60,680 nt of DNA from a virus (taxonomy: Duplodnaviria > Caudoviricetes): positions 1-60,680 of IMG/VR virus record IMGVR_UViG_3300037307_000478; one strand, written 5' to 3'. Of the stretch, positions 863 to 57,742 are shown piece after piece. The notes beneath the pieces were generated by a model. It saw nothing but the letters and a program-made list of their open reading frames with translations. It made no database searches and was not told the origin of the DNA. Position 1 is the first letter of the stretch. Every line of letters begins with the position of its first letter. The position numbers were made by a program, and so were the translations under genes.

Positions 863-1240
863 ATGAAGTACTTAAAAAGATTTAAAGAAATAACTGCCTA
901 CGATTATAATATTACAGACAATCCAGAATCATTATCTAAAAGAGATATTGATATGATTATTCAGAGTTGTGAAAAAAATAGTTGGAATTGGGAAAAAAGA
1001 ACAAGAGATTCTGAATTTCAAATTGAATTCTCAAAAAGCGATTATTGTTATACAATTAATATAGAAAGACAAAATGATGAATATTATCTAGTTCACATAT
1101 TTTTTGAAGATTATTTAAATCCACAAAAAGATGATGATAAGTATTTATTATTGGATGGTAATGACGATCTTAGATATTTCTTAGAAAATCTAGAAAAATT
1201 CTATAATCATAAAAGATTATTTAGCATTAAATCACTTTAA
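863..1240 (+). CDS. hypothetical protein, MKYLKRFKE leader, divergent DEW/CDQ-family domain
   Basis: NDEYYLV...LLDGNDDLRYFLE resembles the repeats in 5319..7979. Confidence 0.75.
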   Translation: MKYLKRFKEITAYDYNITDNPESLSKRDIDMIIQSCEKNSWNWEKRTRDSEFQIEFSKSDYCYTINIERQNDEYYLVHIFFEDYLNPQKDDDKYLLLDGNDDLRYFLENLEKFYNHKRLFSIKSL

Positions 1241-1668
1241 AAAGGAACATCTTCATCAAATGTTGGATTTGAAACATCCTCATCATAGTAGAATTTAGCG
1301 GTCAATAATGGATCGCCTTCTTTACTTTCCCACAAATCAAATTCAGAATCATATTGAATTAATATATCACTTTCAAATTTCTTTAAAAGATTCATTATTT
1401 TCATTATATTGGGAAATTTTTCAGTTTTATTTAGCACAAATTGAATATTAATACATCCCTCATCGTCAGTAAAGACATAATAATTTTCTATATTAGAATT
1501 TTTTATCATTTTTCTTAATGTAGATAATAAAGTTTCTAATATATCTTCCTGTCCAATTTCATCAATGTCGTCGATATTTGGAATATCACCAAAATCGTCA
1601 TCATTTTCAAACGGCTCGTCGATATCATTATTTTCTTTAATTATGTCTAAAAATTTCTTTAGTTTCAT
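1237..1668 (-). CDS. acidic protein with leader and SSB-like C-terminus (FDEDVPF)
   Basis: Starts MKLKKFLDIIKEN and ends PTFDEDVPF. Confidence 0.75.
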   Translation of the reverse strand: MKLKKFLDIIKENNDIDEPFENDDDFGDIPNIDDIDEIGQEDILETLLSTLRKMIKNSNIENYYVFTDDEGCINIQFVLNKTEKFPNIMKIMNLLKKFESDILIQYDSEFDLWESKEGDPLLTAKFYYDEDVSNPTFDEDVPF

Positions 1669-1669
1669 A

Positions 1670-3289
1670 TTAATATATTTGTATTTTTAAAATATTACCA
1701 TCAAATTTAACATCAGGACTGCATCTATGAATAAGTAAAAAAGATTCAATTGATGATAAATCTTCATAAGCATTACTTAACGACGAATCATCGAATTCTA
1801 TGGTGATTTCTATTTTACCTTCAACTCCCTTAACTAATACCTCATTGTAGTAAACCATATCTTTAATGTCTTTAATTAATAAAGACCATTTGTCGAGCAA
1901 TTCTTGATCAATTCCAATTTTTCTTTTTACAACTAAATTACTCCAATCTACTGCTACACAAGCTTTCGCTAATCTTTCCAAATAAGTTATATTTTGAACC
2001 TCATCGTGTGTGTGTTCATTAAAATATCCAACAGATATATTAGTACATTCAGGTATATAATCAATAAAATTAGCCGAATCAGTAAATACTCCGGTTGGAT
2101 CTAAATTCAATTTCAATCCGCTTTTATTTAATTCTTTACATAATGATTCTCCAAATTCATCTGAACAACAAGTTACACCCATTTGTTCTGTGATAACAGA
2201 ATAGTAATTTCTTCTATCAAAAGAAACAACTTTTTTAATATCTTTTAAAAATGGAAAAGAAGAAAAATCATCAGCTACTTTACCAGAACCTATTCCACCT
2301 CTTTCTTCACCAATAAAAAAGTAATAAACCCCCGGAACATTATGAGCCATCATATAAAGCATAATCGCTACACCAGATTTATCATCAGCTCCTAATATAG
2401 TTGTTCCATCAGTCATTAAAAGCTCCTGACCATCTTTCATATTAGAAACTATAATAACATCACTTTTATCTCTAGATGCGGTATCTAAATGAGATGTAAA
2501 CATAGTATCTGAATTTCCTATTATCTTGTAGTAGTTGCCATATTTATCTTTAGTAAGGTCATCTGGCATAAACTTCATCACTTCTTCTTCATGTCCATGT
2601 GGATATGTTTCAGTCACTAAAGAAATAAAAGTTGATCTTACATTTTTTGGATCATATTTAAACGGCGGGACTTCAACAACATTTTCGGGATTTATTTTAG
2701 CTCTATTTTTAATCTTATTATAATCTCTTACAAAGTCATAAATCTGTCCTTTATTATACTTAGAACCTAAGTATGTTCTAATAAATTCTCCAACTTTTAC
2801 TTGACCTTTTCTTCCATTATGATAAAATACATCTAGATAATAATCATCATCAGAAACATCAATCATTGATATACCCATTTTATTTTTAATGTCGGTATTA
2901 TCATCTAATTCAATTATAGACCAAGCTATTTCATTATCAATTTTATCCAGCATTATCCAGAAATCATCTGAGTATTTCATAGGCAATGATTCCATTTGTG
3001 ATAATCTTTTGGATGTGCTCATATCTCTACCTTTATTTTCTATGTTTTTAAAGACTTTTACAAAATCTTCCAAATCTTTTTCAGTATATTTATTTCCTAA
3101 AATAGTTTTTAATGTATTGACATTCACTTTTTCTTTTCCTAAAGTAACTATTTCTACATAATTTGGAGCATTTGAATATATTGCATTTAAATCATTTATT
3201 ATCTTATTTAATTTTTTGATTCCTAATTTTTCCATAGAATCAAAAATATCAAATGTTCCTTTTGTTAAATAAACTCCTACTGCTGCCAT
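1670..3289 (-). CDS. M28/M20-family zinc metallopeptidase with N-terminal extension
   Basis: Metal-ligand motifs SHLDT, LGADDKSG, GEERG, SFDRR, FTDS, NEHT. Confidence 0.85.
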   Translation of the reverse strand: MAAVGVYLTKGTFDIFDSMEKLGIKKLNKIINDLNAIYSNAPNYVEIVTLGKEKVNVNTLKTILGNKYTEKDLEDFVKVFKNIENKGRDMSTSKRLSQMESLPMKYSDDFWIMLDKIDNEIAWSIIELDDNTDIKNKMGISMIDVSDDDYYLDVFYHNGRKGQVKVGEFIRTYLGSKYNKGQIYDFVRDYNKIKNRAKINPENVVEVPPFKYDPKNVRSTFISLVTETYPHGHEEEVMKFMPDDLTKDKYGNYYKIIGNSDTMFTSHLDTASRDKSDVIIVSNMKDGQELLMTDGTTILGADDKSGVAIMLYMMAHNVPGVYYFFIGEERGGIGSGKVADDFSSFPFLKDIKKVVSFDRRNYYSVITEQMGVTCCSDEFGESLCKELNKSGLKLNLDPTGVFTDSANFIDYIPECTNISVGYFNEHTHDEVQNITYLERLAKACVAVDWSNLVVKRKIGIDQELLDKWSLLIKDIKDMVYYNEVLVKGVEGKIEITIEFDDSSLSNAYEDLSSIESFLLIHRCSPDVKFDGNILKIQIY

Positions 3290-3317
3290 CTATTATCCTA
3301 ATTTATTAAAGTATATA

Positions 3318-3707
3318 TTATTTTTTATTTACAATAATTTCATTTGCATTTTTATAATCAACCTTTACTTGACCTGGATTCATTCCTTTTTCTTTTTTAA
3401 CAAACTTTTTTTTACAATAAACCACCACAACTTTATCATCTTTAGATTTAGAATTTTTAGCGGTTATTTCTGCTGCTTGTTTAATTACATCTTCGGTTGG
3501 TAAATTATTTTTTACCTTTATTAAAACATGACTACCAGGAACTCCCTTTGCATGCATCCATATATCATCATCGGATGACATTTCAAATGTTATCATATCA
3601 TTTGCATTGGCATCTTTTCCTTGTATAACAACAAAATCACCTATTAAATATTTTTTAATATTTGGTTTGATTTTTTTAGACTCATTATATGTTTTTAGGT
3701 ATTTCAT
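3318..3707 (-). CDS. stand-alone NFACT-R (RqcH/Rqc2 RNA-binding, DUF814) domain protein
   Basis: GKDANAND, DIWMHAKGVPGSHV, AAEITAKNSK, KFVKK..PGQV; leader MKYLKTYNES. Confidence 0.85.
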   Translation of the reverse strand: MKYLKTYNESKKIKPNIKKYLIGDFVVIQGKDANANDMITFEMSSDDDIWMHAKGVPGSHVLIKVKNNLPTEDVIKQAAEITAKNSKSKDDKVVVVYCKKKFVKKEKGMNPGQVKVDYKNANEIIVNKK

Positions 3708-4093
3708 CTTGTATGTATATATTTAAATGTGAAATCTTGAATATCATATAATAAAATACTTTCATGACCATATATAATTATAATATCTTTAAATACTGAA
3801 TATCCATGAGTTTCATATACACCAGATATTACTGCAAATAGTTCTTCATTTTTAAAAACTAAAAAAAGGTCAGAACCATAATGATGACAAACTTTAATAT
3901 TTCTAAATGTTCTTACCCCCCATCCTTTTTGGAAGGATAAAATATCCTCAAGATTGAGATCCGATATTATTTCTTTTCTGTCATCTATATCAGTAATTTT
4001 TTCATCGTGTGAAATAAAATCTACATTTTTATCATGTATAATTTTATTCCATGTTAATGTTTCATCAGATTCATTATACTTCTTTATTTTCAT
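3704..4093 (-). CDS. hypothetical protein with MKIKKYNES leader
   Basis: Overlaps its neighbours within a late operon. Confidence 0.75.
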   Translation of the reverse strand: MKIKKYNESDETLTWNKIIHDKNVDFISHDEKITDIDDRKEIISDLNLEDILSFQKGWGVRTFRNIKVCHHYGSDLFLVFKNEELFAVISGVYETHGYSVFKDIIIIYGHESILLYDIQDFTFKYIHTR

Positions 4094-4496: not shown

Positions 4497-5326
4497 AAGT
4501 GATTTTTTAAATTTTCAATAAGTCTATCAGCTCTGCTATATATTTCTTCTAATAATTCAATGTTAGCTGTATAATAATCGACCCCCTTATTTACATAAAA
4601 GGCTTCAATTAAATCATCAGGAACATTTATTCCGGAATATCTGCATTGATATACAATTGGTAAAATTGCTTGTTCAGGATTAAAATCTTCTTTTTGATAA
4701 GATGGTGGTAGAGGCTTATTGTTATAATCATTCGCTCCATCGTCACCATGTATGTAAAATCCTGCAAATTTTCCTTGAAGATGATTCTTCAGTAAATAAT
4801 CAAATTCTCCAGATTGCGCAAATTTACCAGTAATATCTGAATTTTTCAAATTTCCTTTTCCAAGAACTCTTTCGGCATCTCCCCTTGTTAGAGTTTGATT
4901 AGCACAAACTAATCTATCAAATAGAGATTTAACTTGTGATGTAACTGAATACCAATGTATAGGACTAAAAACTATAAAAGCATCTGATTCTTTTAACCTC
5001 GTATAAACATCTTCATCGTGCATCAAATCGGGTGCTTTATCACTATCTTTAGAATAACAATCACATTCCCAATGACAATGGTAACCTCCGGCGGTAGAAA
5101 TACATCCTTTACAAGGCTGAATCGTTGATTTTTTAGATAAATTAACAGATAAATCTATAACATCAAATTCAAAATCATTAGAATATTTATCCATCACATA
5201 TTCAATTATCTTATGAGTTTTACTTTCCATATTTGGACAAGTATCTTTATCCCTTGGAGATCCTTGAAAAAGGACTACCTTGGGACGATTATAATTTAAC
5301 TCCTCAAATAATTTTATTTTAATCAT
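4493..5326 (-). CDS. flavodoxin-fold NAD(P)H-dependent FMN reductase / iron-sulfur flavoprotein-like
   Basis: FQGSPR, PCKGC..CHWECDC, SPIHWYSVTSQVKSLFDRL, LQGK; probable start at MIKIKLFEE (5326). Confidence 0.85.
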   Translation of the reverse strand: MIKIKLFEELNYNRPKVVLFQGSPRDKDTCPNMESKTHKIIEYVMDKYSNDFEFDVIDLSVNLSKKSTIQPCKGCISTAGGYHCHWECDCYSKDSDKAPDLMHDEDVYTRLKESDAFIVFSPIHWYSVTSQVKSLFDRLVCANQTLTRGDAERVLGKGNLKNSDITGKFAQSGEFDYLLKNHLQGKFAGFYIHGDDGANDYNNKPLPPSYQKEDFNPEQAILPIVYQCRYSGINVPDDLIEAFYVNKGVDYYTANIELLEEIYSRADRLIENLKNHL

Positions 5327-7979
5327 AATACTCATCTAATTTTTCTAAACAAGATAATACTCCATCAATTTGGTCACATTTAAACATCCAATTATTTGTA
5401 TCTCTTACTAAAAACCATTCATCTTTTAGTTTTGTTATAATAATGATATCATCAACAATAATACTTTTTTGAGGGATTCCCCAAGAAGGAAAATCACTGC
5501 CGGGACCATAGATTTCATATTTTTTACCTCTAGATAATATTTCTATTTCTTTTTGTGTAAAGTCTTCAATATTAGGTTTCTCACTTTTATAATAATCGTC
5601 TTGTTGCCCATCCTCATCTGGGTCTGAATCATTCATCCACAACATCTCATCATATTCTACATCATCTATTTCCTCATAATATCCTTCTTTATGAAATGAC
5701 TCATTTAGGGAAGAAATTTTTTCTATTTGTATAATATAGAAATCGTCACGTAATGGACTTTCAAAATTTATTATATCATATCCATATTTTTGAATTGATT
5801 TTCTAAAAACATCATCAATGTAATAATGGAATGATATAGTTATATCATAATCCTCATTGATTCTAACTAAAATATCTAATCTTTGATTTCCAGATATAGA
5901 TTCAGTTATATCATATTCATATATTCCAAATTTTTTAATCTTTTCGCGATAGATATTTCCTTCACAATATTCTAATTCTAAACGATCAACGACTCTTATT
6001 TCAAATGCATCTTTAACATCTTCAAAAGTTTCTTTACTATGATATGACTCCTTTAGTGGCTTATTAAATGTCTTCAATAGTTCTAATAATCCTTCAATTT
6101 GATCACATTTATAAAATTTTGTTGTTTCTCCTATTTTACTAGCCACATCTCGAAGTTCAACAATATACCATTCATCCTCTATCTTATTAATATAGGCTTT
6201 TTGTTTCATAGAACTATTCTTCGATGTTTTCATCTCTTCGTCAGTTTTTAATATGGCTAAAGTGAAATTTGGCAAATCTGTAATATGCACAGATTCTTCT
6301 TCAACATAATAAGCATGAAAAACTTTTTTCTTACCATTACTGTAAGTTACCTCAATTGTATCACTACCCACAGATTCACAGAGATCAAATTGATCATAAA
6401 TTGTAAAATCACCATAAGAGGATTCTATATTAGCTGGAAAAGAATGCACTTCAACAAAATCATTTATTTTTGATATTTCATTTTCGGTGAAGCAATGTAT
6501 TTTATCTCCTCTTAGTAAATTAAAATATTCCCTATTGCTTAGAGATGTATAATATTCTTGTTTTTTATTCTCATATGTTTTTACATACATATCTTTTTTC
6601 CAATTACCATAAATATCTTTTAAAAATTTAATTACACTATCTATTTGATCGCATAAATAAAATTTCTTTCCTAATCCACCATGTTCTATAAGATACCATT
6701 CATCCTTTATTTTATTGATATATGTTTTTTTAGATATTTTATCCCACATACCTGTACTTTCTATCATAATACAAAAATCTTCTAATTCATCTAATAATAC
6801 ATCATCCTTGCCGCTTGATGATTGATATTTTTTTATTGATCCATCGGAATGATGTATTATGACTTCATTATAATCTATATCTATAAGCTTATTTAATTCA
6901 ATTCCTTTTTTAGTATTAAATTTATCAGATATTAAAAAACTATCATAAGATGTTTCTAGTAAAGCATTTATTTTAGTAAATTCAATTCTACCCAAACCAT
7001 CAAATACGGATTCAATTAATTTAGATTCATTTTTTGTAAAACAACAAAAAATATTACCACTTTTTAAGTGTTCTGCATATTTTTCTCTAGTTATTTCTTT
7101 ATAATATTCCTCAGTTACATAATCAATTGGTAATAATGTTTTCAAACAACTAATTACACCTTCTATTTGATCACATTCATAATAGTGTGGGTAATCGGTT
7201 AACAAAAACCACTCATCTTTAAAAGATTCAATTCTAATATATTTTCTTGTTGATTTTATATCTTTATAAGGCATCCAAAATCCAAGAGAAGATGAGTCAT
7301 CATCATTATTATAGTAATCTGAATCTTTAAGTCCGTAAGGTTTTAGAATAGATTTAATTTTATCTATATCTTTTTGTTTAATGTAACTAGATTTATCATT
7401 TCGGAATTTCGAACCTAAATCTCCTGGTTTTACATTTAAGAATCCTAAATCTAAGCTTTCATTTCTTTTAGGAATCACAATTTCTTCAAGAAATTTAATT
7501 AATCCATCTAATTGGTCGCACCTATAAAACTGTTCACCCATTCCATATTGATAGATATAAAACCAATCATCAGTACACTTGAAGATTTCAAAAAATACAA
7601 CATCTCTCCATTCATTTCTATATGGATCTCTTTTTGATGGCCTTAATTTACTTTTCGTTAATTGTAAAATACCATTGTGTAATATATTATCTCTTTCTTT
7701 ATTAATATTGGCAGGCCCGACATGATGTAGACCTTGTATATTTAACTTTTTAACTTCAAACGGAGTATATGATAAAGCCTCATCAATTTTAGAAACCTCA
7801 ATCTTAGAAAAGTTTTCTATTGAATCATAATTAAAATGTCCAGCAGCGGAAGCTATTTTTATTACAGGATGTGTCATAACATTAACTTCTTCTTCTGGTA
7901 GAAAAAATTTATTATAAAAATCACTACAACTTATTTTCTCATAATAATTTAAAGATTCAAATAGCTTTAAATATTTCAT
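5319..7979 (-). CDS. multi-repeat protein (five DEW...CDQ domains), putative polyprotein
   Basis: Five copies of K.xD[ED]W[FY]...[FY]xCDQ[IL][DE][GS]; MKYLKLFES leader. Confidence 0.8.
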   Translation of the reverse strand: MKYLKLFESLNYYEKISCSDFYNKFFLPEEEVNVMTHPVIKIASAAGHFNYDSIENFSKIEVSKIDEALSYTPFEVKKLNIQGLHHVGPANINKERDNILHNGILQLTKSKLRPSKRDPYRNEWRDVVFFEIFKCTDDWFYIYQYGMGEQFYRCDQLDGLIKFLEEIVIPKRNESLDLGFLNVKPGDLGSKFRNDKSSYIKQKDIDKIKSILKPYGLKDSDYYNNDDDSSSLGFWMPYKDIKSTRKYIRIESFKDEWFLLTDYPHYYECDQIEGVISCLKTLLPIDYVTEEYYKEITREKYAEHLKSGNIFCCFTKNESKLIESVFDGLGRIEFTKINALLETSYDSFLISDKFNTKKGIELNKLIDIDYNEVIIHHSDGSIKKYQSSSGKDDVLLDELEDFCIMIESTGMWDKISKKTYINKIKDEWYLIEHGGLGKKFYLCDQIDSVIKFLKDIYGNWKKDMYVKTYENKKQEYYTSLSNREYFNLLRGDKIHCFTENEISKINDFVEVHSFPANIESSYGDFTIYDQFDLCESVGSDTIEVTYSNGKKKVFHAYYVEEESVHITDLPNFTLAILKTDEEMKTSKNSSMKQKAYINKIEDEWYIVELRDVASKIGETTKFYKCDQIEGLLELLKTFNKPLKESYHSKETFEDVKDAFEIRVVDRLELEYCEGNIYREKIKKFGIYEYDITESISGNQRLDILVRINEDYDITISFHYYIDDVFRKSIQKYGYDIINFESPLRDDFYIIQIEKISSLNESFHKEGYYEEIDDVEYDEMLWMNDSDPDEDGQQDDYYKSEKPNIEDFTQKEIEILSRGKKYEIYGPGSDFPSWGIPQKSIIVDDIIIITKLKDEWFLVRDTNNWMFKCDQIDGVLSCLEKLDEYYD

Positions 7980-8314
7980 TTGTTTATAACTTTATTTAAA
8001 TATTGTAGTCCATAATACATATCTACAACTCTTAATTTAATTACCCCTTGAACTGCAGGAGAATTAAAACTTTGCCCCGGCTTTCTCAATAATGCAGTTA
8101 TCCATACATAATCACCTCTCTTAACTTCTTTTGTAGATAGATCGGTATTCACTGGCCATGCATTTCCTTCTTTCACTGGAATATCTTTAGGATCTAAAAA
8201 AATATCTAGTATTTCTTCTATTTGATATTCACCAGATAATTTATCCATATTTAATTCCAAATTAGAATTCTCTATATCTTTAGATAATTCGTCATATTTT
8301 TTTATTTTACTCAT
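7976..8314 (-). CDS. hypothetical protein, first gene of leader-bearing late operon
   Basis: MSKIKKYDE; late promoter at 8321-8328. Confidence 0.75.
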   Translation of the reverse strand: MSKIKKYDELSKDIENSNLELNMDKLSGEYQIEEILDIFLDPKDIPVKEGNAWPVNTDLSTKEVKRGDYVWITALLRKPGQSFNSPAVQGVIKLRVVDMYYGLQYLNKVINK

Positions 8315-14695: not shown

Positions 14696-14696
14696 T

Positions 14697-34377: not shown

Positions 34378-34400
34378 CCCTTAAATAAATAATATAAATC

Positions 34401-34430: not shown

Positions 34431-34442
34431 ATATATACATAT

Positions 34443-35130: not shown

Positions 35131-35181
35131 TGAAAATAAATATATATACTGGAACAATTTGTTCAAAAATAATGATTAAAC

Positions 35182-43461: not shown

Positions 43462-45180
43462 ATGGCCTCATATAATCCGATGAATCAACAATCATCATTG
43501 GGAATTTCCTCAGCAGTTGAAAATAAAGGTTTATTTAGTAAAATATTAAGAAATCTTAGTTCATGGGGAATGAAATATGATGATATGATAATTCGTAATA
43601 CAGTGGGCGTGGGTATTAACGAAGATCCGTATTCATTGAAAGGAAACTCAATGTATGATTTCTTTTCTCAAAGAGCAGTTGCTCAGGTTTTAAACAAAAA
43701 ATCAATACCTTATCTTGACAGAGCTTACTCCGACAAAAGAAGAATTTTAAGAGAATATTCAATCAAAGATGAAATTAGAGATTTCATTTCTTCAGTTGCT
43801 GACGAGTCAATTATTTATAATGATGAAAAGGATTTTTGTTCACCCAAGCCTTTATCAAATGATTATTCACAAGATGTTAAAGATAAATATCAAGAATATT
43901 TCGAGAAAATTTATAATAAATTTGGTTTTTCTGATGGTATTACTGCTTGGAATATGATGAAAGATTTCTTAATTGATGGATATGTGGCTTTAGAAATAGT
44001 ATGGGATGACCAAAAAAAGAACATTATCTATTTTAATAGATTAAGACCGGAAACATTAGTTCCAGCATATGAGCCAACAATTGGTAACTTATGGATACAA
44101 TATCCGGAAGATCCTCAATTGAGAAGAATTTTTTTAGATTCACAAATTGTATTCGTATCATATTCTACCCAACACGATTATTCAGAAACTTCTTATGTAG
44201 AGGGGTTAATAAAACCTTATAATCAGTTAAAAATTATCGAACAAACAAGAATAATGTTCAACGTAATTAATGCTACTGTATATCAGAAGTTTACCATTCC
44301 TATTAAAGGTTTGCCAAGACAAAGAGCTGAAGAACAAGTAGGTCAATTAATTGCAGATTATTCGGAAGAAGTGGAATGGGATGATACATTAGGAACATTA
44401 ACAATAAATGGTACAAAACATCTACCATATAATAAACAAATATGGTTTCCTGAAGGTGAAGCGGGTACCCCTAATATGGAGTTAGTTTCTCCTGAGGGTC
44501 ATAACCTGAATGAAAGTGATATACTTACATGGTTTTATAATGCATTGAAAAGAGCATCTAAAATTCCATTTTCAAGATTTGAAAAAGAAAATGGAGGTGG
44601 AAATATCTTTTCAGATGCTTCTGAGATGACAAGAGATGAAGTTAAATTTTCAAATTTTATCGGAAGATTGCGAGCAATTTTTAAAGAATTAATTGTAAAG
44701 CCGTTAAAACTACAGATGTGTATGGAGTTTCCAGAATTGAAGGATGATGAAATATTCTTAAATCAAATTGATATAAACTTTAATTCTAATCAAATTTTTG
44801 AAGAATGGAAGAAATTAGCCAATATGGAGAAAAGATCTTCAATTTTATCATCATTGTTAGGAATACAAACTGCTGATGGTAATCCTTATTTCCATATTGA
44901 ATACTTGATAGATAAGATTATGAAATTGACTCCTGAGGAGAAAGAGGAAAATAAAGCATATTGGATAAAATCTAAATTTGGAGGAGCGACTGCTGAAGGA
45001 GGTGAACCAGGTATGGGAGGCGAACCAGGTATGGGTGAGATGGAAGGACAACCTGGTATGGGTCCTGAAATGCCAGAAGAAGGTGGTGGTGGACCTGAAT
45101 TACCACCAGCTCAAGGAGGAGGTGGTGAGGGCGGCGAGACACCTCCAGCTGAAGAAGGTGGCGGAGAATTTGAATTTTAA
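43462..45180 (+). CDS. portal protein (gp20-like)
   Basis: FLIDG, IKPYNQLKIIE, GLPRQRAEE, LKRASKIPFSR, TRDEVKFSNFI.RLR; low-complexity Gly/Glu tail. Confidence 0.95.
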   Translation: MASYNPMNQQSSLGISSAVENKGLFSKILRNLSSWGMKYDDMIIRNTVGVGINEDPYSLKGNSMYDFFSQRAVAQVLNKKSIPYLDRAYSDKRRILREYSIKDEIRDFISSVADESIIYNDEKDFCSPKPLSNDYSQDVKDKYQEYFEKIYNKFGFSDGITAWNMMKDFLIDGYVALEIVWDDQKKNIIYFNRLRPETLVPAYEPTIGNLWIQYPEDPQLRRIFLDSQIVFVSYSTQHDYSETSYVEGLIKPYNQLKIIEQTRIMFNVINATVYQKFTIPIKGLPRQRAEEQVGQLIADYSEEVEWDDTLGTLTINGTKHLPYNKQIWFPEGEAGTPNMELVSPEGHNLNESDILTWFYNALKRASKIPFSRFEKENGGGNIFSDASEMTRDEVKFSNFIGRLRAIFKELIVKPLKLQMCMEFPELKDDEIFLNQIDINFNSNQIFEEWKKLANMEKRSSILSSLLGIQTADGNPYFHIEYLIDKIMKLTPEEKEENKAYWIKSKFGGATAEGGEPGMGGEPGMGEMEGQPGMGPEMPEEGGGGPELPPAQGGGGEGGETPPAEEGGGEFEF

Positions 45181-45183: not shown

Positions 45184-45220
45184 AAAAAAAGTGAAGTTTT
45201 TAACTTCACTTTTTCTTTTT
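45184..45220. terminator. bidirectional terminator
   Basis: AAAAAGTGAAGTT/AACTTCACTTTTT. Confidence 0.8.
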
Positions 45221-45813: not shown

Positions 45814-47901
45814 ATGAAACCTGTACTAATTGTAGAAAACAATACAAGCCCACTATCAAGGAACGAAAATGTTCAAAATTCAAAGAACTATGTTTTAGGT
45901 GGAATTTTTACTGAGTTTGGTATTAAAAATCGCAATGAAAGAATTTATACTGCTGATAAATTTATTCCTTGTTTAGATGAGCTTAATGAGAGAATTAAAA
46001 CAATGGGAGTAGTTTATGGTGAATTTGATCACCCAGATGTATTTGATACATCTCTTTCAAGAGCATCACATATTATTGAGAAAACTTACTTTGTTAAGGA
46101 ATCAAATAGAGTTGATGGTCAAATTAGATTATTAAACACATATTGGGGTAAAGAAGCAAAAGCTTTAGTTGATGACGGATGTCCTCTTTTTGTATCATCA
46201 AGAGCAGCTGGTATCACTGAATCTGATGGAACAGTAACACTTAAAAAGTTATTTACTTATGATATTGTTGCTGATCCTGGTTTTGCTTCTGCCAAGTTAT
46301 CATCTATAAACGAGTCATTCGGTTATACAAATAACACCAACTTTAGGATATATGAAATGTCCGACGAGTCAAAAATTAATGATCTATTTAACATGAACAA
46401 AAATGAATTTGTTACCAAAGATCAGTTGACTGACTATTCTAAGTATATCATCAACGAAATTGCGTCTACTAAGAAAGAAGTTAAGTCGGCTCTTAAAGCT
46501 GGTAACTTAAATCCAAAAAAGTTAGAGGAACTCTTAGAATATTACGAAGAGTTAAATAAAACTAACCAACAAATTGTTAAGTATTTAGATTACTTAGCAG
46601 AAAAAGTTCAAGTAGTAGTAAATGAGAACAAATCATTGAAGACAACTACTGACAAATTAATTAATCATAATGATTATTTAGCAGAAAATCTTGAAAAAGC
46701 TATTAATTATTCTGAGTACTTAGCAGAAAACTTAGATAAGAACATTACTTATTCTGAGTACTTAGCAGAAAACTTAGATAAGAATATTTCTTACTCTGAG
46801 TATTTAGCCGAGAATTTAGATAAGAATATTGCTTACTCTGAGTATTTAGCCGAGAATTTAGATAAGAATATTGCTTATGCTGAATACATCGCAGAAAACT
46901 TAGATAAAAATATTTCTTACTCTGAATATTTAGCTGAGAATTTAGATAATACTATTGCTTATTCTGAGTACTTAGCTGAGCATGTAGAAGGTAATATAGC
47001 CTATTCTGAATACATTGCTGAACATTTAGATGATAATATTGCTTATGCTGAATACATTGCCGAAAATTTAGATAAAACTGTTTCATACGCTGGTATGATA
47101 TCAGAAAAATTAAATGGTGGTAAGGTATTTGAAAATGCAAATGAAACTTTCCCTACACTTGAAGATGCTGGTTTTGAAATGTTACCAGAATTTGAAGAAG
47201 AGGTTGAAGAAGAAGAAATTCCTGAAGAGGAATTTGAACTTTTACCACAAGAAGAAGTTGTAGGTGAAGAAGAAGAATCTGTAGAAGAATCTGTAGAAGA
47301 ATCTACTGAAGAAGTTGTTGAAGAAGCTATCGAATCTACTGAAGAAGTTGTTTCTGAAGAAGAAGAGGCTTATGAAGCAAACACTGATACTGAATTGTCT
47401 CGCCAAATAGATAAATTAATCGAAGAAGCTAAAAAACGTAAAGTTTCTGAGTCAAATGACTTACACTTCTTAAGATTCTTAAACAAGTCTCAAGTTGATA
47501 GTTTTTATGAATTATCACAAGAAGAACAAGAACAAGTTAAGCTTTACATAAACGAAAAAAGTTACTACACAAGTTCTGATGTTTTAAGATTAATTGGAGA
47601 AGCTCTTTCTATTAAGAATGAGTCGCTTGAAGAAAGATTAATCAGATTGATGCCTGAAAACATTAAGCCAATCTGGGGTCAATTAAATGAGAGCTCTAAA
47701 AAGTCTATACTTTCTCAAGCTAGACTTTATCCAGAATTAGACACCGAATCAAAAGTTGAACATTTCTGGTTGACTAGAAATCTCAAAAAGAATGAATCAG
47801 TTTCTAAGAAACTTGTTTCTCACGAAAGTATGATTCAAGAAGATAAGTTATCTGAAAAAGAAGTTAACGCAATCTTAGAAAGATTCATGAGTTTGAAGTA
47901 A
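45814..47901 (+). CDS. prohead protease (gp21-like) fused to scaffold/core (gp22-like)
   Basis: KNRNERIY, GEFDHP, VSSRAAG, YDIVADPGF, then coiled-coil repeats and an acidic region. Confidence 0.92.
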   Translation: MKPVLIVENNTSPLSRNENVQNSKNYVLGGIFTEFGIKNRNERIYTADKFIPCLDELNERIKTMGVVYGEFDHPDVFDTSLSRASHIIEKTYFVKESNRVDGQIRLLNTYWGKEAKALVDDGCPLFVSSRAAGITESDGTVTLKKLFTYDIVADPGFASAKLSSINESFGYTNNTNFRIYEMSDESKINDLFNMNKNEFVTKDQLTDYSKYIINEIASTKKEVKSALKAGNLNPKKLEELLEYYEELNKTNQQIVKYLDYLAEKVQVVVNENKSLKTTTDKLINHNDYLAENLEKAINYSEYLAENLDKNITYSEYLAENLDKNISYSEYLAENLDKNIAYSEYLAENLDKNIAYAEYIAENLDKNISYSEYLAENLDNTIAYSEYLAEHVEGNIAYSEYIAEHLDDNIAYAEYIAENLDKTVSYAGMISEKLNGGKVFENANETFPTLEDAGFEMLPEFEEEVEEEEIPEEEFELLPQEEVVGEEEESVEESVEESTEEVVEEAIESTEEVVSEEEEAYEANTDTELSRQIDKLIEEAKKRKVSESNDLHFLRFLNKSQVDSFYELSQEEQEQVKLYINEKSYYTSSDVLRLIGEALSIKNESLEERLIRLMPENIKPIWGQLNESSKKSILSQARLYPELDTESKVEHFWLTRNLKKNESVSKKLVSHESMIQEDKLSEKEVNAILERFMSLK
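46666..47115 (+). repeat. coding repeat, about 11 x 42 bp (YSEYLAENLDKNIx)
   Basis: 14-aa double-heptad units in the scaffold region. Confidence 0.92.
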
Positions 47902-47957: not shown

Positions 47958-49625
47958 ATGTCACACATTAGAATAGACAAACAAAAAGCCTTCAAAAAGT
48001 GGGCTCCTGTCTTAGAAAACATGGGTGTTAGCAGCGAAGAAAGACTTGATTGGATGTCAGAATATGCTGAATATCACTCTATCAATGAAAATGCTTACCT
48101 TAATGCTGGTGTTGCTGGTATGGGCGCAATAACTGCTCCTCAACCTTCTACTTTAGCTGGTAGCACAATCGGTACTAACTGGTCTTCAAACGGTGGTACT
48201 CTTGGTTCTGGCGATTTAGGTCAAAACCTTTTACCTGTAGCTATGAAAATTGCTGCTCAAACTATCGGTCTTGACCTTGTAGCTGTTAAACCAACTCCTG
48301 GTCCAAAAATCGACTTGTTATACATCGACTTCCAGTATGATGATACTAACTTAGACGAAGCAAGACCTCAAGTTTTCAAAGTTAATGCTACTAACTTAGT
48401 TGATATTAAGGCTGGTTTAACTGCAGCTTTAGTTGCAGCTAGCATTACTGAAACTGTAGGTGGTTTAGCTGGTGGTAGACTTTGGAATAACATCTCTAAC
48501 GGTGTTACTACTACTACAGAGCCTGCTTCTAAAACTAACCAAGTTGAATTCTTAGGTTTCTCTCGTATTGATGGATTCCCAATGTTCAGAGCTTACAGAC
48601 AATACAATGCTGTATCTAATTTCTCTGGTGCTGTTCCTGTAGCTCCTTATACATTTGATGCTACTAAAAATACTTTCTCACCAACTGCTTCTATGGTAGA
48701 CCAAATCGATGCGATTGCTGGTGTTACTGCAAGTGGTGTTTCAGTTGAATTAGTATCTGCTCTTGAAGACCATATTCCTGGTTTCGTAACTAACTGGGCT
48801 TCATCTGGTTCAGGCGCTGTTGGTTCTTATCCAATGTCTCGTCAAGCTGATGACAACACATATGCTGGTGTTATTGGTCCTAAAGTTTCTTCTAAAACTG
48901 TTGCAGTTGGTACTATTGAAGTATCTTCAGCTCTTAGAAGAACTGAAATTGAAGATATCAAAGCTAACACTGGTATGGACATCGTACAAAAGATGGAATC
49001 TATCCTTGTTAACGAATTGTCTCAGACTATTTCTAAGCAAATCGTTGCTAAGATCTTCGAATTAGGTGCATTAAACAGAACTTCTGCTCCTACAAACGGC
49101 GGTAATTCTATCTTCGACTTAAATACTAACTATGTTGTATCTGGTCCTGGTGGTGAAACTACTCACGCTGTTCAAAGAAAGTTAATCACTAAAGTGGTTC
49201 ACGCTTCTAACTATATCGCTACTGAAGGTCGTGTTGGTCCTGCTCAATTCGCAGTTACTAACGGAGGTCTTGCTGCAGCTTTCATGGATATTGCTGGTTA
49301 CACTGTTAACCCAGTTAAATCTAAATTAAATGGTTCTGGTCAATTATATCCAGTAGGTCAAATCGGAGATATCACTATCTACGTAGATCCTTACATGAAG
49401 TATAATGACAACAGAATTGTTCTTGGTAGAAAGAACAATCCTGATCAGCCTGGTGTTGTATTTGTTCCATACTTAATGGCTCAATCTATCAGCATCATCT
49501 CTGAAGCTACCTTCGCTCCAAGAATGTTATTACGTTCTAGATATGCAGTAGCTGAAGTAGGTTGGTTCCCACAAAAGCAGTACATGCAACTTAATGTTAC
49601 TGACGCTAGTGGTTATCTTAACTAA
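47958..49625 (+). CDS. major capsid protein (gp23-like)
   Basis: KKWAPVLE, DLVAVKP, ILVNELSQTI, IYVDPY, FVPY, FAPRMLLRSRYA; codon usage of a highly expressed gene. Confidence 0.95.
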   Translation: MSHIRIDKQKAFKKWAPVLENMGVSSEERLDWMSEYAEYHSINENAYLNAGVAGMGAITAPQPSTLAGSTIGTNWSSNGGTLGSGDLGQNLLPVAMKIAAQTIGLDLVAVKPTPGPKIDLLYIDFQYDDTNLDEARPQVFKVNATNLVDIKAGLTAALVAASITETVGGLAGGRLWNNISNGVTTTTEPASKTNQVEFLGFSRIDGFPMFRAYRQYNAVSNFSGAVPVAPYTFDATKNTFSPTASMVDQIDAIAGVTASGVSVELVSALEDHIPGFVTNWASSGSGAVGSYPMSRQADDNTYAGVIGPKVSSKTVAVGTIEVSSALRRTEIEDIKANTGMDIVQKMESILVNELSQTISKQIVAKIFELGALNRTSAPTNGGNSIFDLNTNYVVSGPGGETTHAVQRKLITKVVHASNYIATEGRVGPAQFAVTNGGLAAAFMDIAGYTVNPVKSKLNGSGQLYPVGQIGDITIYVDPYMKYNDNRIVLGRKNNPDQPGVVFVPYLMAQSISIISEATFAPRMLLRSRYAVAEVGWFPQKQYMQLNVTDASGYLN

Positions 49626-55765: not shown

Positions 55766-56126
55766 AAAAACAACAAAACTGTCTTACACACTACTAGGAT
55801 TTTTAATGATATTTTTTATCTTAGCAACATATTTTTCCTATGACTTTTATAGAAAATCAACAAATGTTGAATCTCCTAAAACTGTCCGTTCTAATGATAT
55901 ATTGAGTATTGATTCTATTAAAAAAATATCAGTAGAAGATACTGTTAAGTATTTCAATATAAAAATTGACATACTTAAAAATCAAATTTCAGAAAAAGAT
56001 ACTTTAATAAAAAAATATCAAAATGATATTCAAAAGGTCTTAAAAATAAAAGATTCTATTTCATTTCGTTTAGAATCAACTAGAATGAAGTTGCGAGAAG
56101 CTAATAATCGTGACACAATAAAATAA
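55758..56126 (+). CDS. N-terminal TM coiled-coil protein
   Basis: Start reassigned to MSKK at 55758. Confidence 0.65.
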   Translation: MSKKTTKLSYTLLGFLMIFFILATYFSYDFYRKSTNVESPKTVRSNDILSIDSIKKISVEDTVKYFNIKIDILKNQISEKDTLIKKYQNDIQKVLKIKDSISFRLESTRMKLREANNRDTIK

Positions 56127-56137
56127 AATAAAATAAA

Positions 56138-56302
56138 ATGGCCAAATTAATTCAAACTATTATTGCGATGGGTCTTTGGTATTTAATAGGATCTTTTGTC
56201 GGTGGATCTTTTCATCCATTTGACTGGCATTGGGCTTGGAGATTAATATTAATATTATTGATGATAGTTACAGTAGGACAAATATTAGATGGTAAAGATT
56301 AA
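56138..56302 (+). CDS. small two-TM membrane protein (54 aa, not in ORF track)
   Basis: MAKLIQTIIAMGLWYLIGSFVGGSFHPFDWHWAWRLILILLMIVTVGQILDGKD. Confidence 0.65.
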   Translation: MAKLIQTIIAMGLWYLIGSFVGGSFHPFDWHWAWRLILILLMIVTVGQILDGKD

Positions 56303-56314
56303 TATATAATCTTA

Positions 56315-57742
56315 ATGAAAATATTAAAATACAGTCAATTCTCTGATAAAAAATTATTAGAAGAGGTTTCTTCTAAACTTAAGGGTAGGAATCTATTTCC
56401 TGAAAAAACTATGCATGCTAAAAAATATTTGGAAAGTATAACTATTCCGGAAACAACATATTTACCATCATATGAAGACTGTCTTGAAATGTGTTCTAAA
56501 GAAGATTCTCCTTTTTATGAATCCAAAATGCAATTAGATGGATTTAATATATCTGTTTTTAATTATAGATTAGCTCAATATAAAGACTTTGTTACGCCAC
56601 TTCCTAATAAGCCTCAGGTTAAGGCATATGAAATGAGAGGATTAACTTTTATATTTAATAATGATGGTAGTCTTTATAAAAGATACATATTGCTTGAAAA
56701 ATTCTTTAACTTAAATCAAGTTCCGGAATCAATGTATTCTATTGTAAAAAATTATAAAATAAAATTTGTTAATGAAAAAGAGGATGGTTCTATAGCTTCA
56801 TTTATAAAATTACCAAATGGTAAAATTTACGGCAAATCTAAAATGTCTTTTGAAAATGATCAGGCTATAGGTATTACTAATATTTATAAGTCTAATAAAG
56901 ATGTCAATGGATTCGTTAATTGGTGTATGAATAATGATATTACTCCCATCTTTGAGTATGTTGCACCACATAATAGAATTGTTTTGAGATACTCGAAGGA
57001 AGAATTAATTCTTTTGAGATTAAGAGATAATAAAACTGGAAAACATATTGATATTAAAGATCATTTAGATAAATTGGGTTCTATTAAAATTGCTCCTTTT
57101 AAAGATGATTTTAAAGATTTGGATTCATTGATTGAGTTAACTGCAACTGAAATTGATAAGGAAGGTTATGTTATTCAAGCAGAAGATGAAAATGGCAAAG
57201 ATTTTTTCTTTAAATTGAAAACTCCATGGTACTGTGAAAGGCATGGATTATTAACTGAAGATTTATATAAAGAAAATATAATTATTGGTTATATTTTAGA
57301 TGATAAAATTGATGACATTTTGGGTCAAATTCCGGAAGAAGAAGTTGAAGCTAGAGAGAGAATTCTTAAAATAGTTGATATTATTAAAAGATCAATATCT
57401 AAAAAAATACACAGTATTGACGAACTTTATAAAAAATTTGTTGAAATGGGTAAAAATAAAAGAGACTTTGCTCTAAAATATCGTAGAGATAAAGACTTCC
57501 CATTTGTTATGGAATTATCTAAATTGGATGATCTAAAATCTTTACCAAGAGAGGAAATATTAACCAAATATGACAGTTATGAAAGATATGAATCAACTAT
57601 TAATAGACTTGATAAATATGAATTAATTAAGCAATGGTTAAAAGATAGAACTAAGAGACTTCAAATGGCTAGAGATTTTATAAGGGAGGAAGATCCCAAA
57701 TTTGAATTTAGAAATAAAATAGAAAATGAGGATGATAATTAA
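56315..57742 (+). CDS. T4 Rnl1/RnlA-like RNA ligase with N-terminal leader
   Basis: EMRGL, LEKFFN, EKEDGS, FEYVAPHNRIV, EGYV, KLKTPWY..H; AATATATA at 56301-56308. Confidence 0.9.
   Translation: MKILKYSQFSDKKLLEEVSSKLKGRNLFPEKTMHAKKYLESITIPETTYLPSYEDCLEMCSKEDSPFYESKMQLDGFNISVFNYRLAQYKDFVTPLPNKPQVKAYEMRGLTFIFNNDGSLYKRYILLEKFFNLNQVPESMYSIVKNYKIKFVNEKEDGSIASFIKLPNGKIYGKSKMSFENDQAIGITNIYKSNKDVNGFVNWCMNNDITPIFEYVAPHNRIVLRYSKEELILLRLRDNKTGKHIDIKDHLDKLGSIKIAPFKDDFKDLDSLIELTATEIDKEGYVIQAEDENGKDFFFKLKTPWYCERHGLLTEDLYKENIIIGYILDDKIDDILGQIPEEEVEARERILKIVDIIKRSISKKIHSIDELYKKFVEMGKNKRDFALKYRRDKDFPFVMELSKLDDLKSLPREEILTKYDSYERYESTINRLDKYELIKQWLKDRTKRLQMARDFIREEDPKFEFRNKIENEDDN

Follow-up and report, generated by a model that had tools for sequence, protein, structure and literature searches.

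The internal proteins of phage T4 are basic, and its capsid protein gp23 is cut after FGSFLTE. In the T4 record, ipII and ipIII open with MKTYQEFIAE and gp22 with MLKEQLIAE. T4 gp61.1, which is not known to be a head protein, opens with MKTFKEFIKE, so a start resembling the capsid-targeting sequence (CTS) is by itself no proof of packaging. PMC9026906 assigns targeting to residues 4 and 7 of the T4 CTS and processing to residues 8 and 10. The window, the whole 60,680-nt stretch of phage DNA analysed here, represents ∼11% of a megaphage genome whose relatives are 'uncultured phage' records of 462–735 kb, and Bacteroidota host-type promoters are present in it. Roughly one in five of its genes opens with a common ten-residue tag, which by analogy with T4 is probably a CTS that has been greatly expanded in this megaphage lineage. 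The T4-type head module of the window and its late sigma factor are as follows:

43462..45180, plus strand: T4 gp20-type portal protein (Pfam Portal_T4, 1.8e-61; phrog_213)
45814..47901, plus strand: prohead protease (gp21 / S77 family) fused to scaffold (phrog_207, 1.5e-30)
46303..46317, plus strand: [L/I/V]-N-E-S junction, residues 164–168, directly after the protease domain; predicted self-cleavage site
46666..47106, plus strand: scaffold repeats, ∼10 of 14 residues each, Y-S-E-Y-[IL]-A-E-N-L-D-K-N-I-x, with a T4-type [IL]-A-E site in each
47958..49625, plus strand: T4 gp23-type major capsid protein (Pfam Gp23, 8.7e-26)
35449..35814, minus strand: gp55-like late sigma factor (phrog_234, 2.1e-06)

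The Peptidase_S77 match of the protease-scaffold (9.9e-06) falls slightly short of the Pfam cut-off, and the PTm1 homologue is annotated 'prohead core scaffolding protein and protease'. We propose that the tag docks on this protein and is cut by it. Residues N166, E167 and S168 of its junction are invariant (45/45 sequences), and a KYLDYLAEK segment lies beside the YSEY[IL]AE/N repeats. There are 20 conserved E-[SGN] junctions in the protein, mostly with I/L/V at P3, and NES occurs four times (0.2 expected); many tags close with NES as well. Residues 40–45 of the capsid protein (nt 48075–48092) form a conserved H-S-I-N-E-N in an alignment of 70 N-termini, and HSINE/N is the predicted propeptide cut site.

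The initial annotation described a single leader at 19 starts. All 19 are ATG codons that begin the peptides it quoted (the higher coordinate is the start of a minus-strand gene; at 5326, 25422 and 38882 an earlier ATG/TTG is present in the same ORF), but we found two tag types: type A, MK[YH][LI][KR]x[FY][EN][ES], and type B, M-x(1-4)-[FY]xx[FY][ILV]xE. Thirteen starts are strict type A, one is type A shortened by one residue (4093), two are T4-like type B (22569, 28149), two are type-B-like (1668, 56315; the orthologues of both genes have clearer tags) and one is doubtful (25328). The late motif named in the list is [AT]ATATATA.

863..1240, plus strand: MKYLKRFKE, type A, 125 aa, orphan; late motif ends 14 nt before the ATG
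1237..1668, minus strand: MKLKKFLDIIKEN, type-B-like, then an acidic D/E-rich tract, 143 aa; conserved head-module family
3318..3707, minus strand: MKYLKTYNES, type A, 129 aa, NFACT-R domain (Pfam NFACT-R_1, 7.6e-15, residues 24–116)
3704..4093, minus strand: MKIKKYNES, type A minus one residue, 129 aa
4074..4496, minus strand: MKYLKKFEG, type A, 140 aa
4493..5326, minus strand: MIKIKLFEE, type A, 277 aa, FMN reductase-like (Pfam FMN_red, 1.3e-13, domain from residue 15)
5319..7979, minus strand: MKYLKLFES, type A, 886 aa; no family found
7976..8314, minus strand: MSKIKKYDE, type A, 112 aa; first of a six-gene tagged run (8314 to 3318)
22003..22569, minus strand: MIRTYKSFVNE, type B / T4-like, 188 aa
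22566..25328, minus strand: MKYIKNTQLYKSEILLNE, 920 aa, doubtful member; outside both patterns, yet joins the de novo cluster
25422..25871, plus strand: MIHIKNFDSFKES, type A, 149 aa; late motif 25 nt upstream
27769..28149, minus strand: MKGFYQFISES, type B / T4-like, 126 aa
33745..34377, plus strand: MKHIRKFES, type A, 210 aa; tagged orthologue in LR745206
34443..35057, plus strand: MRHIKLFEN, type A, 204 aa, possible isochorismatase-like hydrolase
35182..35463, plus strand: MKYLKFYES, type A, 93 aa
38053..38556, minus strand: MNYIKKFES, type A, 167 aa
38553..38882, minus strand: MNHIKKFNE, type A, 109 aa; late motif ends 13 nt before the ATG
40465..41040, minus strand: MKIYKFFES, type A, 191 aa
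56315..57742, plus strand: MKILKYSQFSD, RNA ligase, Rnl1-type (Pfam RNA_lig_T4_1, 2.2e-22, from residue 106)

A tail sheath gene adjoins the 22566..25328 gene.

The enrichment of the motif lies far above both shuffled and positional controls. The pattern ^M..[ILY][KR].[FY].{0,2}[ED] matches 13 of 71 curated ATG starts (73 genes less two with non-ATG starts; three curated starts were picked with the motif in mind) and 2 of 1059 other ATGs in the window (1/331 internal in-frame Met and 1/728 other ATGs; Fisher 7.5e-15). Shuffling each N-terminus 5000 times gave a mean of 0.21 matches and a maximum of 3. When starts were chosen blind to the motif (the most upstream ATG in each ORF of 60 codons or more), 11/88 matched as compared to 4/856. 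With no motif supplied, a BLOSUM graph of the N-termini has 28 edges, as compared to 3 for internal-Met control segments, and its largest component comprises 14 N-termini, all among the 19. The tagged proteins are unrelated, as had been claimed: 82 of them, from the window and its relative LR745206, fall into 71 BLAST clusters after trimming 14 residues. The tag codons differ synonymously in the window and match genome-wide codon usage in the relative; therefore it is the peptide on which conservation acts. The tag is thus a real feature of unrelated proteins, selected as a peptide.

The type A search pattern left positions 2 and 3 free; K occupies the former in 50/69 and Y/H the latter in 62/69 tags. 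Position 4 is L/I and position 7 is F/Y, with Glu next at 8–9, and F/Y-x-E-S ends the tag in 15/69. The type B pattern ([FY]xx[FY][ILVM]xE) occurs at 19/1048 candidate starts and 10/9350 other ATGs of LR745206, and at 22/630 and 11/5164, respectively, in the first 400 kb of LR756501. The two types are interchangeable and substitute for each other inside one orthologous family, NFACT-R: 36 NFACT-R orthologues bear type A or type-B-like tags of 8–13 residues with a fixed E-[SG]-KK junction, and the tag Glu (E9) is the sole invariant residue within the first 29 (29/29 sequences). In the family of the 1237..1668 gene, 33 relatives open with MKLKKY..[FL].E or similar, followed by D/E/Y-rich tracts. 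The RNA ligase has a weak tag in the window; its LR745206 orthologue opens with MKLFKYIEFINE, a clear type B. The cysteine hydrolase of the initial annotation (34443) has weak fold matches (best Foldseek E 0.12) and no Pfam hit.

The tag is an appendage outside the folded domain: residues 1–10 are unmodelled (pLDDT <50) in the AlphaFold2 models of two families, NFACT-R and 34443 (first strand of the latter at 14–18; mean pLDDT of the two families 89.8 and 83.9), and Pfam domains start later, position 1 of the FMN_red profile aligning to residue 15. Close homologues of the FMN reductase-like gene (5326) use the same start Met. Only 8 of the best 120 homologues in this family have the tag; the other 112 are without the F..E motif, yet their N-terminal extension (MxIRKLGDKKPK) is just 4 residues shorter. 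Some tags may therefore have arisen by slight alteration of an ancestral N-terminus.

In the complete 634 kb relative LR745206, 91 of 892 ORFs are tagged. Nearly all are mutually unrelated; they are clustered, acidic, soluble and mostly orphans. Tagged genes are adjacent in 24 pairs (9.2 expected; equalled in 0/5000 permutations), hydrophobic segments occur in 2/91 tagged and 71/801 other proteins, and the median pI is 4.9 for tagged and 5.5 for other proteins. A scan of 89 tagged proteins found 14 Pfam families only, with one member each, including Acb1 / 2H-phosphoesterase, SMODS-associated NUDIX, NUDIX and DHH. Others are an RNA ligase, PPK2, an exonuclease and a Toprim protein, which are not an obvious fit as injected cargo. 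Tagged genes are accessory, with a homologue in the relative for 5/13 tagged and 43/60 other window genes (p 0.049).

Four megaphage records contain 64, 71, 34 and 14 copies of the tag DNA pattern; LR756501, Lak-A1 and PTm1, all of similar G+C, contain none. PTm1 has no common N-terminus (26 BLOSUM edges, 25 in the control). PTm1 and Lak-A1 resemble the tagged phage in composition and host phylum and have capsid genes related to that of the window, yet are without the tag. Cellular genomes (596 Gb) contain only 29 matching stretches, 15 of them in one MAG, a contig of which carries a capsid gene sharing 74% identity with that of the window; viral contigs contain at least 120. Because the tag is absent from PTm1 and Lak-A1 and nearly absent from cellular genomes, neither composition nor host explains it.

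Under the CTS reading, tagged proteins would be made late. The tag (8–13 residues with hydrophobic/aromatic residues three apart, then Glu) would mimic one scaffold repeat unit and dock its protein on the scaffold core during prohead assembly. The gp21-family protease would cut the scaffold at [IL]-A-E sites and the tag after its Glu, and the freed cargo would leave the head with the DNA at infection. We infer docking, cleavage, packaging and injection. The capsid-cargo interpretation of the initial annotation is supported in part: every computational check it proposed came out favourable, including those of motif, promoter and domain start, while several details were corrected. Against the CTS reading, no precedent is known for ∼90 cargo species per genome.

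There is a small chance that the tag is instead a recognition peptide for another phage or host machine (a chaperone, stability or turnover, another phage-made structure) that marks soluble late accessory proteins. The phage encodes a ClpS adaptor (31176–31457; Pfam ClpS, 1.3e-17) and therefore intervenes in N-terminal recognition and proteolysis, the tagged proteins are acidic and enzymatically diverse, and related phages of the same head type manage without the tag. About half of type A tags place Glu at position 8 and vary at P3 (K/T/S/R/L); this departs from the canonical [LI]-x-E protease context and counts against capsid targeting, as do the acidity of the tagged proteins and the lack of the tag in PTm1 and Lak-A1. 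ClpS, however, recognises free N-terminal L/F/Y/W, and the tags start M-K. Another machine would also leave unexplained the presence of tagged families inside the head gene module and the likeness of the tag to scaffold repeats, head-protein E-S/N junctions and the T4 CTS at its functionally mapped positions.

The tag is associated with the phage-specific TAATATATA promoter, as had been proposed: in LR745206 it precedes 48/91 tagged and 174/801 other ORFs (odds ratio 4, p 2e-9), and the gp55-like sigma factor is a candidate reader of this motif. All 19 window genes were said to lie downstream of the late motif, which holds in the operon sense only; [AT]ATATATA lies within 70 nt of 12/19 starts, and the other seven abut or overlap a same-strand upstream gene (gaps −20 to +1). 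In the window, the motif is also found ahead of the sheath, portal, protease, terminase, gp15-like, head-closure and fibre genes. The asserted contrast with host-type promoters is small in the window (1/19 tagged, 9/54 others, p 0.44). Among tagged LR745206 genes with their own motif, 30/48 have it ending 4–9 nt before the ATG, often only 4–6 nt, which suggests near-leaderless mRNAs. It is nonetheless quite improbable that the conserved start is a translation requirement of late, A+T-rich messages and the peptide has no later role. No Shine-Dalgarno sequences were seen and A/T-rich codons abound in the tag, but synonymous codons at conserved residues follow genome usage (AAA, 36 observed and 36.9 expected), ∼73 untagged genes share the short promoter spacing, some tagged genes lie inside operons without their own promoter, PTm1 and Lak-A1 do without the tag, and the strongest constraints are the aromatic at position 7 and the invariant Glu. 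A functionless passenger, left by a mobile promoter-plus-start cassette spread by recombination, is highly improbable: promoter and tag co-occur, tagged genes cluster in variable regions and tandem arrays, and T4-type phages shuffle regulatory cassettes, but the 34443 family keeps type A in 109/120 homologues (64–100% identity) despite variable linker length, the NFACT-R Glu is invariant, DNA conservation stops at codons, and the promoter motif is missing within 60 nt of 43/91 tagged LR745206 ORFs.

If the CTS reading is true, injection by these huge phages may deliver dozens of ready-made proteins as well as DNA. The tagged proteins are acidic, unlike the basic internal proteins of T4. The analogy with T4 drawn by the initial annotation is strengthened by the gp21-family protease, gp20, gp23, gp55-like factor and T4-like type B tags in the window and its relatives. 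The T4 CTS itself fits the type B pattern, and type A has L/I and F/Y at positions 4 and 7, respectively, which are the T4 targeting residues according to PMC9026906. The scaffold repeats of this phage resemble its own tag, which ends in Glu-Ser/Asn junctions like those conserved in its protease-scaffold and capsid proteins.

The window is a linear viral record of 60,680 bases (11% complete by the CheckV estimate) with a G+C content of 24–32%. At the DNA level its head genes are 72–74% identical to those of two 'uncultured phage' records, LR745206 (634,780 bp) and LR756502 (642,428 bp). The capsid protein shares 54% identity with its counterparts in LR756504 and LR756501 (735,411 bp), 36% with that of LR756500, and 29–30% with those of Tenacibaculum phage PTm1 and the Prevotella Lak phages. 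Judging by size, the 'uncultured phage' relatives appear to be 'Mahaphage' genomes, described in PMC7162821 as huge genomes with Bacteroidetes as predicted hosts.

All 19 starts at which the initial annotation had seen a shared N-terminal peptide (the tag) are in the sequence as it described them. The pattern ^M..[ILY][KR].[FY].{0,2}[ED] occurs at 13 of 71 curated ATG starts vs 2 of 1059 other window ATGs followed by 12 open codons (Fisher 7.5e-15); three window starts had been set with the motif in view, and without motif-guided start choice the counts are 11/88 vs 4/856. The enrichment holds against shuffled N-termini, since 5000 shuffles gave a mean of 0.21 matches and never more than 3, with 13 observed. 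Comparing N-termini without any motif (BLOSUM62, 10-residue windows, small shifts allowed) yielded 28 similar pairs vs 3 among internal Met-led segments. The largest cluster contains 14 of the 19 starts; N-termini that are truly signal-like group apart from it. Copies of the tag in the window differ from one another by synonymous codons. Within the ORF 1237-1668, an internal in-frame Met at 1395 (-) begins MNLLKKFESDIL; it is the sole internal window Met matching the tag pattern and may either serve as a second start or match by chance.

We read LR745206 in full (ORFs of at least 60 codons, n = 892). The pattern is present at the first ATG of 61 ORFs and at a Met within 30 residues in 8 more, vs 6 of 3173 Mets further in. 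These tags have the consensus M-K-[YH]-[LI]-[KR]-x-[FY]-[EN]-[ES] (type A). At positions 2 and 3, which the pattern leaves unconstrained, K is found in 50/69 and Y or H in 62/69 tags, and information content is at background beyond position 10. The conserved residues are encoded by synonymous codons in their genome-wide proportions. A degenerate DNA pattern encoding the first seven tag residues was counted per phage record and gave 64 matches in LR745206, 71 in LR756502, 34 in LR756504, 14 in LR756500, and none in LR756501, Lak-A1 or PTm1; the reversed pattern, as a control, gave 0–3. LR756501 has another start instead, e.g. MIKTFDEFINES and MVKRYKQFINEG. This type B form, searched as ^M.{1,4}[FY]..[FY][ILVM].E, occurs at 22/630 candidate starts vs 11/5164 other ATGs in the first 400 kb of LR756501, and at 19/1048 vs 10/9350 in LR745206. 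Two window genes, at 22569 and 28149, are of type B. With both types and alternative starts allowed, 91 of the 892 LR745206 ORFs are tagged. Across ~80 head loci from IMG/VR (1.36 Mb), type A is found at 47/1919 candidate starts vs 25/19,389 other ATGs. The observation is confirmed and covers a whole megaphage lineage. LR756502 has tandem arrays of small genes at 10.3–15.6 kb and 21.7–25.1 kb, spaced ~400–550 bp apart and all starting MKHLK.[FY] or MKYLK.[FY]; families of tagged proteins seem to have expanded there.

PTm1 has a Bacteroidota host, the same type of head module as the window, and 29.6% G+C across the 45 kb that we read. Pattern searches found no tag in it, and the motif-free test of its whole genome gave 26 pairs vs 25 in the control; a PTm1-specific tag, M[KR]KLY..ISEN (on 2 genes), was likewise unsupported by that test. 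One genome from each of 185,579 prokaryote species was scanned with a 27-base degenerate pattern encoding M-K-[YH]-L-K-x-F-N-E. There were 29 matching stretches, 15 of them in one MAG, several with four or five matches each. This MAG, titled Candidatus Muiribacterium halophilum, has tandem arrays of tagged genes and a contig whose capsid gene is 74% identical to the window's, indicating that it contains a megaphage of the window's lineage. The megaphage was either binned along or hints at the host. In viral contigs the same pattern matched at least 120 stretches, among the matches listed mostly on contigs of 20–500 kb. A composition artefact is ruled out by the shuffles, by PTm1 and the other records without matches, by the motif-free test and by the scan of cellular genomes.

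The claim that the tagged proteins are otherwise unrelated was borne out. Clustering placed 82 tagged proteins in 71 clusters, which rules out a paralogous family as the source of the shared start. Only three window tagged proteins match Pfam (NFACT-R, FMN reductase and an Rnl1-type RNA ligase), and in each the domain starts after the tag. Three families were followed as to whether the tag is a separable module, NFACT-R and two others:

3318-3707, tagged NFACT-R protein; AlphaFold2 mean pLDDT 89.8, residues 1–10 below 50, fold from near residue 17
4493-5326, FMN-reductase-like protein
34443-35057, tagged protein labelled 'cysteine hydrolase'; AlphaFold2 mean pLDDT 83.9, residues 1–10 below 50, first strand at 14–18

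For NFACT-R, 29 of 36 relatives were aligned after duplicates and one short copy were dropped. Orthologues carry either a type A tag (MKYLKYFES, MKHLKQFES) or a type-B-like tag (MIKKFNSFNES, MRLKKYKQFNES). The tags range from 8 to 13 residues and meet the mature part at a constant E-[SG]-K-K junction; the sole invariant residue among the first 29 is the E. For the other two families the 120 best homologues each came from metagenomic contigs, many very long, and not from named cells. The 34443-35057 family has type A in 109 of these 120 (64–100% identical) and near-variants in the other 11, followed by a linker of variable length; D19, K89 and C173 are invariant (51 sequences). Its 'cysteine hydrolase' label is a weak lead, since a fold search gave no matches at E ≤0.001 and the best, isochorismatase-family enzymes, had E 0.12–0.55 and TM ≤0.52. 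Sequence searches of solved structures gave no match to this or the FMN-reductase-like protein, and the ESM Atlas gave no usable match to an 886-aa tagged protein (TM ≤0.19 by query). In the FMN-reductase family the tag is on 8 of the 120 best homologues and looks like a modified ancestral N-terminus. The other 112, some on 300–770 kb contigs, start M[KI][IV]RKLGDKKPKV, four residues shorter; this common start may act as an N-terminal signal in another lineage or just belong to the family.

Tagged genes lie next to each other. LR745206 has 24 adjacent tagged pairs vs 9.2 expected (reached in 0/5000 permutations) and the window 11 vs 4.7 (1/5000), with one run of six (8314 to 3318) and one of three (33745 to 35463). 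The tagged genes are accessory: an LR745206 homologue is present for 5/13 strict window members vs 43/60 other genes (p 0.049). In LR745206 their products are more acidic (median pI 4.9 vs 5.5, p 8e-7), and a hydrophobic segment occurs in 2/91 tagged vs 71/801 other ORFs (p 0.025). A Sec, Tat or lipoprotein signal peptide, which would need at least 10 hydrophobic core residues behind a basic N-terminus plus a cleavage site or lipobox, is excluded by this scarcity and by residues 8–20, which are rich in E, N, S and D. Of the tagged LR745206 ORFs, 89 were scanned against Pfam (2/91 spanned slice boundaries), and 14 families were matched by one member each: PPK2, SMODS-associated NUDIX, NUDIX, RNA ligase, M15 peptidase, 2'-5' RNA ligase-like / Acb1, RNase T, DNA polymerase B exonuclease domain, DHH, Toprim, HTH and three others.

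In its 60 kb the window encodes three distinct RNA ligases:

14670-15707 (+), RNA ligase (phrog_968)
51732-52376 (+), RNA ligase (phrog_24030/34045)
56315-57742 (+), RNA ligase (Pfam RNA_lig_T4_1), the only one with a tag-like start

A collagen-repeat protein at 58947-60680 (+) runs past the window end (Pfam Collagen 1.4e-37; tail fibre PHROGs).

Many window genes are preceded by [AT]ATATATA, the phage-specific promoter motif (also written TAATATATA). Some have TAnnTTTG instead, the host-type motif, which we take to be the Bacteroidota -7 element; no Shine-Dalgarno sequences were seen before window genes. [AT]ATATATA is also found upstream of the sheath, portal, protease, terminase, gp15-like, head-closure and collagen-like fibre genes, and is absent upstream of the window's clamp loader, SbcD and thymidylate synthase genes, a distribution consistent with a putative late class. 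All tagged genes had been placed downstream of this motif and none under host-type promoters. In the window this is a tendency: 12/19 tagged vs 20/54 other genes have [AT]ATATATA (p 0.06), the other 7 tagged genes have none of their own and all abut an upstream same-strand gene, and the host-type motif precedes 1/19 vs 9/54 (p 0.44). In LR745206, [AT]ATATATA lies within 60 nt upstream of 48/91 tagged vs 174/801 other ORFs (odds ratio 4.0, p 2e-9), and TAnnTTTG upstream of 5/91 vs 100/801 (p 0.057). The end of [AT]ATATATA falls at two preferred distances from the ATG, 4–6 nt and 20–26 nt, in the window's upstream regions and genome-wide in LR745206; the 4–6 nt class would imply nearly leaderless late mRNAs.

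The window encodes a T4-like head machinery and a putative late sigma factor:

35449-35814, gp55-like late sigma factor
43462-45180, gp20-type portal (Portal_T4 1.8e-61)
45814-47901 (+), 695-residue protease-scaffold; first ~340 residues phrog_207 'head maturation protease' (1.5e-30)
47958-49625, gp23-type capsid protein (Gp23 8.7e-26)

Residues 25–139 of the protease-scaffold match gp21/S77 (Peptidase_S77 9.9e-06, 25.6 bits, below the cut-off of 27), and its PTm1 homologue is annotated as a scaffold-protease fusion. The C-terminal part contains about ten 14-residue repeats, Y-S-E-Y-[IL]-A-E-N-L-D-K-N-I-x, with K-Y-L-D-Y-L-A-E-K ahead of them. Among 45 aligned sequences (of 66 distinct full-length IMG/VR relatives), the repeat residues Y, E, Y, A, E, D and I are invariant or close to it, and the same applies to N166-E167-S168 just past the protease domain. 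There are twenty conserved E-[S/G/N] junctions, most with I, L or V at P3. NES, also the end of many tags, occurs four times in this protein vs 0.2 expected from the proteome (Poisson 5e-5). The N-terminal region of the capsid protein aligns to T4 gp23 (KKWAPVLEN vs NKWKPLLEG), and its H-S-I-N-E-N at residues 40–45 is kept in 70 sequences, with a variable stretch after it. Two tagged families, NFACT-R and an acid-tailed protein, are encoded inside the head gene module, directly 3' of the capsid gene in relatives.

The scaffold repeat (YSEYIAE), the T4 capsid targeting sequence or CTS (YQEFIAE), the T4 gp22 start (EQLIAE), the T4 gp23 cut site (FGSFLTE) and type B tags ([FY]xxF[ILV]xE) have one common form, and type A KYLKxFNE can be aligned with scaffold KYLDYLAE. 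From this shared form we infer that the tag may imitate a scaffold unit and carry the scaffold's own cut site. A complex prediction for scaffold residues 181–695 with the tagged NFACT-R protein, using alignments, returned 'no answer' (score 0.00) and carries no weight either way.

The window has several other genes of note:

1670-3289 (-), 'peptidase' (phrog_4191, 4.6e-72), part of a conserved block 3' of the capsid gene in relatives
12856-13968 (+), its paralogue (phrog_4191, 1.8e-70)
40076-40477 (+), 133-aa protein paralogous to the prohead protease domain (27% identity over 97 residues)
45206-45607 (-), small gene (DUF7487, 7.7e-09) between the portal and protease genes, in the same place in LR745206

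The 133-aa paralogue has YGELEPEN and YFQART in place of the protease GEFDHPD and FVSSRAAG, the motifs with the catalytic His and Ser, and so is probably inactive; a separate orthologue was not found in LR745206. LR745206 has three more genes between portal and protease, so the head module is interrupted.

We conclude that the shared N-terminus is best read as a T4-like capsid-addressing tag, a reading that is probably right. Against it stand the acidity of the candidate cargo, which is also far more diverse than anything described, and the Lak and PTm1 phages, which do without the tag. The main remaining alternative, that the tag is read by some machine other than the prohead, is unlikely. 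The window does encode a ClpS adaptor at 31176-31457 (-) (Pfam ClpS 1.3e-17, above cut-off; 69% identical to an LR745206 gene) that may interfere with N-degron proteolysis; we set it aside as the tag reader because the tags begin M-K. Returning to the capsid-addressing tag, a fuller reading is possible and, taken jointly, falls just short of probable. The largest known phages would package about a tenth of their proteome, as 60–90 distinct, mostly orphan, soluble, acidic proteins that include enzymes degrading immune-signalling nucleotides. A ten-residue tag imitating one scaffold repeat would let them co-assemble into the core and be freed by the cuts that dismantle the scaffold, so that proteins for takeover and counter-defence, made in advance, would enter the cell with the DNA. 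In that case a simple sequence pattern would reveal the injected proteome of uncultured megaphages and hint at the binding partner of the T4 CTS.

To our knowledge, no megaphage of the window's clade has been cultured. A packaging marker read from sequence would turn hundreds of orphan genes into candidate injected takeover or counter-defence factors and would provide metaproteomics with specific targets. The resemblance of the tag to the scaffold repeat suggests a testable answer to the old T4 question of what the CTS docks to, and natural tags this short, able to bring arbitrary proteins into large capsids, would be useful tools. A full-text literature search and term checks within the article texts of PMC7162821, PMC7824862 and PMC12619734 turned up no report of tag expansion. 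The concept of a capsid-addressing tag is already T4's. New relative to the literature searched are the scale (~10% of ORFs), the second consensus, the occurrence in the largest known phages and the apparent imitation of the scaffold repeat.

In T4, ipII and ipIII start MKTYQEFIAE and gp61.1 starts MKTFKEFIKE, and these are the only type B matches among 566 candidate starts, as compared to 91/892 tagged ORFs in LR745206. The hypothetical gp61.1 (NC_000866 18966-19130 (-), 54 aa, gene 61 cluster) nearly copies the IPII/IPIII CTS at its start, which shows that a CTS-like start occurs on a protein not known to us as packaged. Like the CTS of IPII and IPIII, which the prohead protease gp21 removes, the megaphage tag is a short N-terminal sequence shared by proteins with no other relation, with hydrophobic or aromatic residues three apart and then Glu; type B has the same pattern as the T4 peptide. 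The homologous gp20, gp21 and gp23 head machinery is in the same genome, and in both systems the genes are in variable regions, with late expression in T4 and putatively late expression in the megaphages. According to PMC9026906, a review on how T4 heads assemble, the first ten residues of IPIII are enough for incorporation in the T4 head, residues 4 and 7 serve targeting and residues 8 and 10 processing, and the CTS may be a general route by which T4-like phages bring various proteins into heads. At these targeting positions type A has L/I at 4 and F/Y at 7 and type B has [FY]xx[FY]; both positions are partly set by our search patterns, and the motif-free cluster has them too. T4 core proteins gp22, gp67 and gp68 are cut at [LI]-x-E, an ending that type B has by definition and that type A replaces with [FY]-N-E or x-[FY]-E. 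In roughly half of the type A tags the Glu is residue 8 and P3 varies, a departure from the T4 rule. The megaphages also differ from T4 in this second, shorter consensus, with Glu right after F/Y or one residue on, in the acidic candidate cargo that includes enzymes, and in a protease fused to a scaffold with 14-residue repeats. The acid-tailed tagged family of the head module is reminiscent of T4 gp67, whose C-terminal tail is acidic, and gp22 starts MLKEQLIAE. The 1237-1668 family resembles the T4 core proteins in its tag, acidic tract and head module location, a likeness without demonstrated sequence homology, the megaphage scaffold being fused to the protease.

In the SPN3US/phiKZ group of giant phages, the cleavage motif is S/A/G-x-E. 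Their propeptides are mostly >100 residues and have no one shared short consensus, whereas the megaphage tag has 8–13 residues and is nearly identical over dozens of proteins. A long propeptide of this type (at least ~100 residues) is excluded by the tag length and by a folded domain that begins at ~14–17. Encapsulin cargo-loading peptides resemble the tag in that a short terminal peptide brings diverse enzymes into an HK97-fold shell. They are usually C-terminal, bind the shell protein and are not removed by a protease, and no virion is involved. The parallel in SPN3US/phiKZ is that many head-internal proteins are cut after Glu by a gp21-related protease and that prohead targeting has been proposed for the propeptides, as stated in the sections of PMC5694885 consulted.
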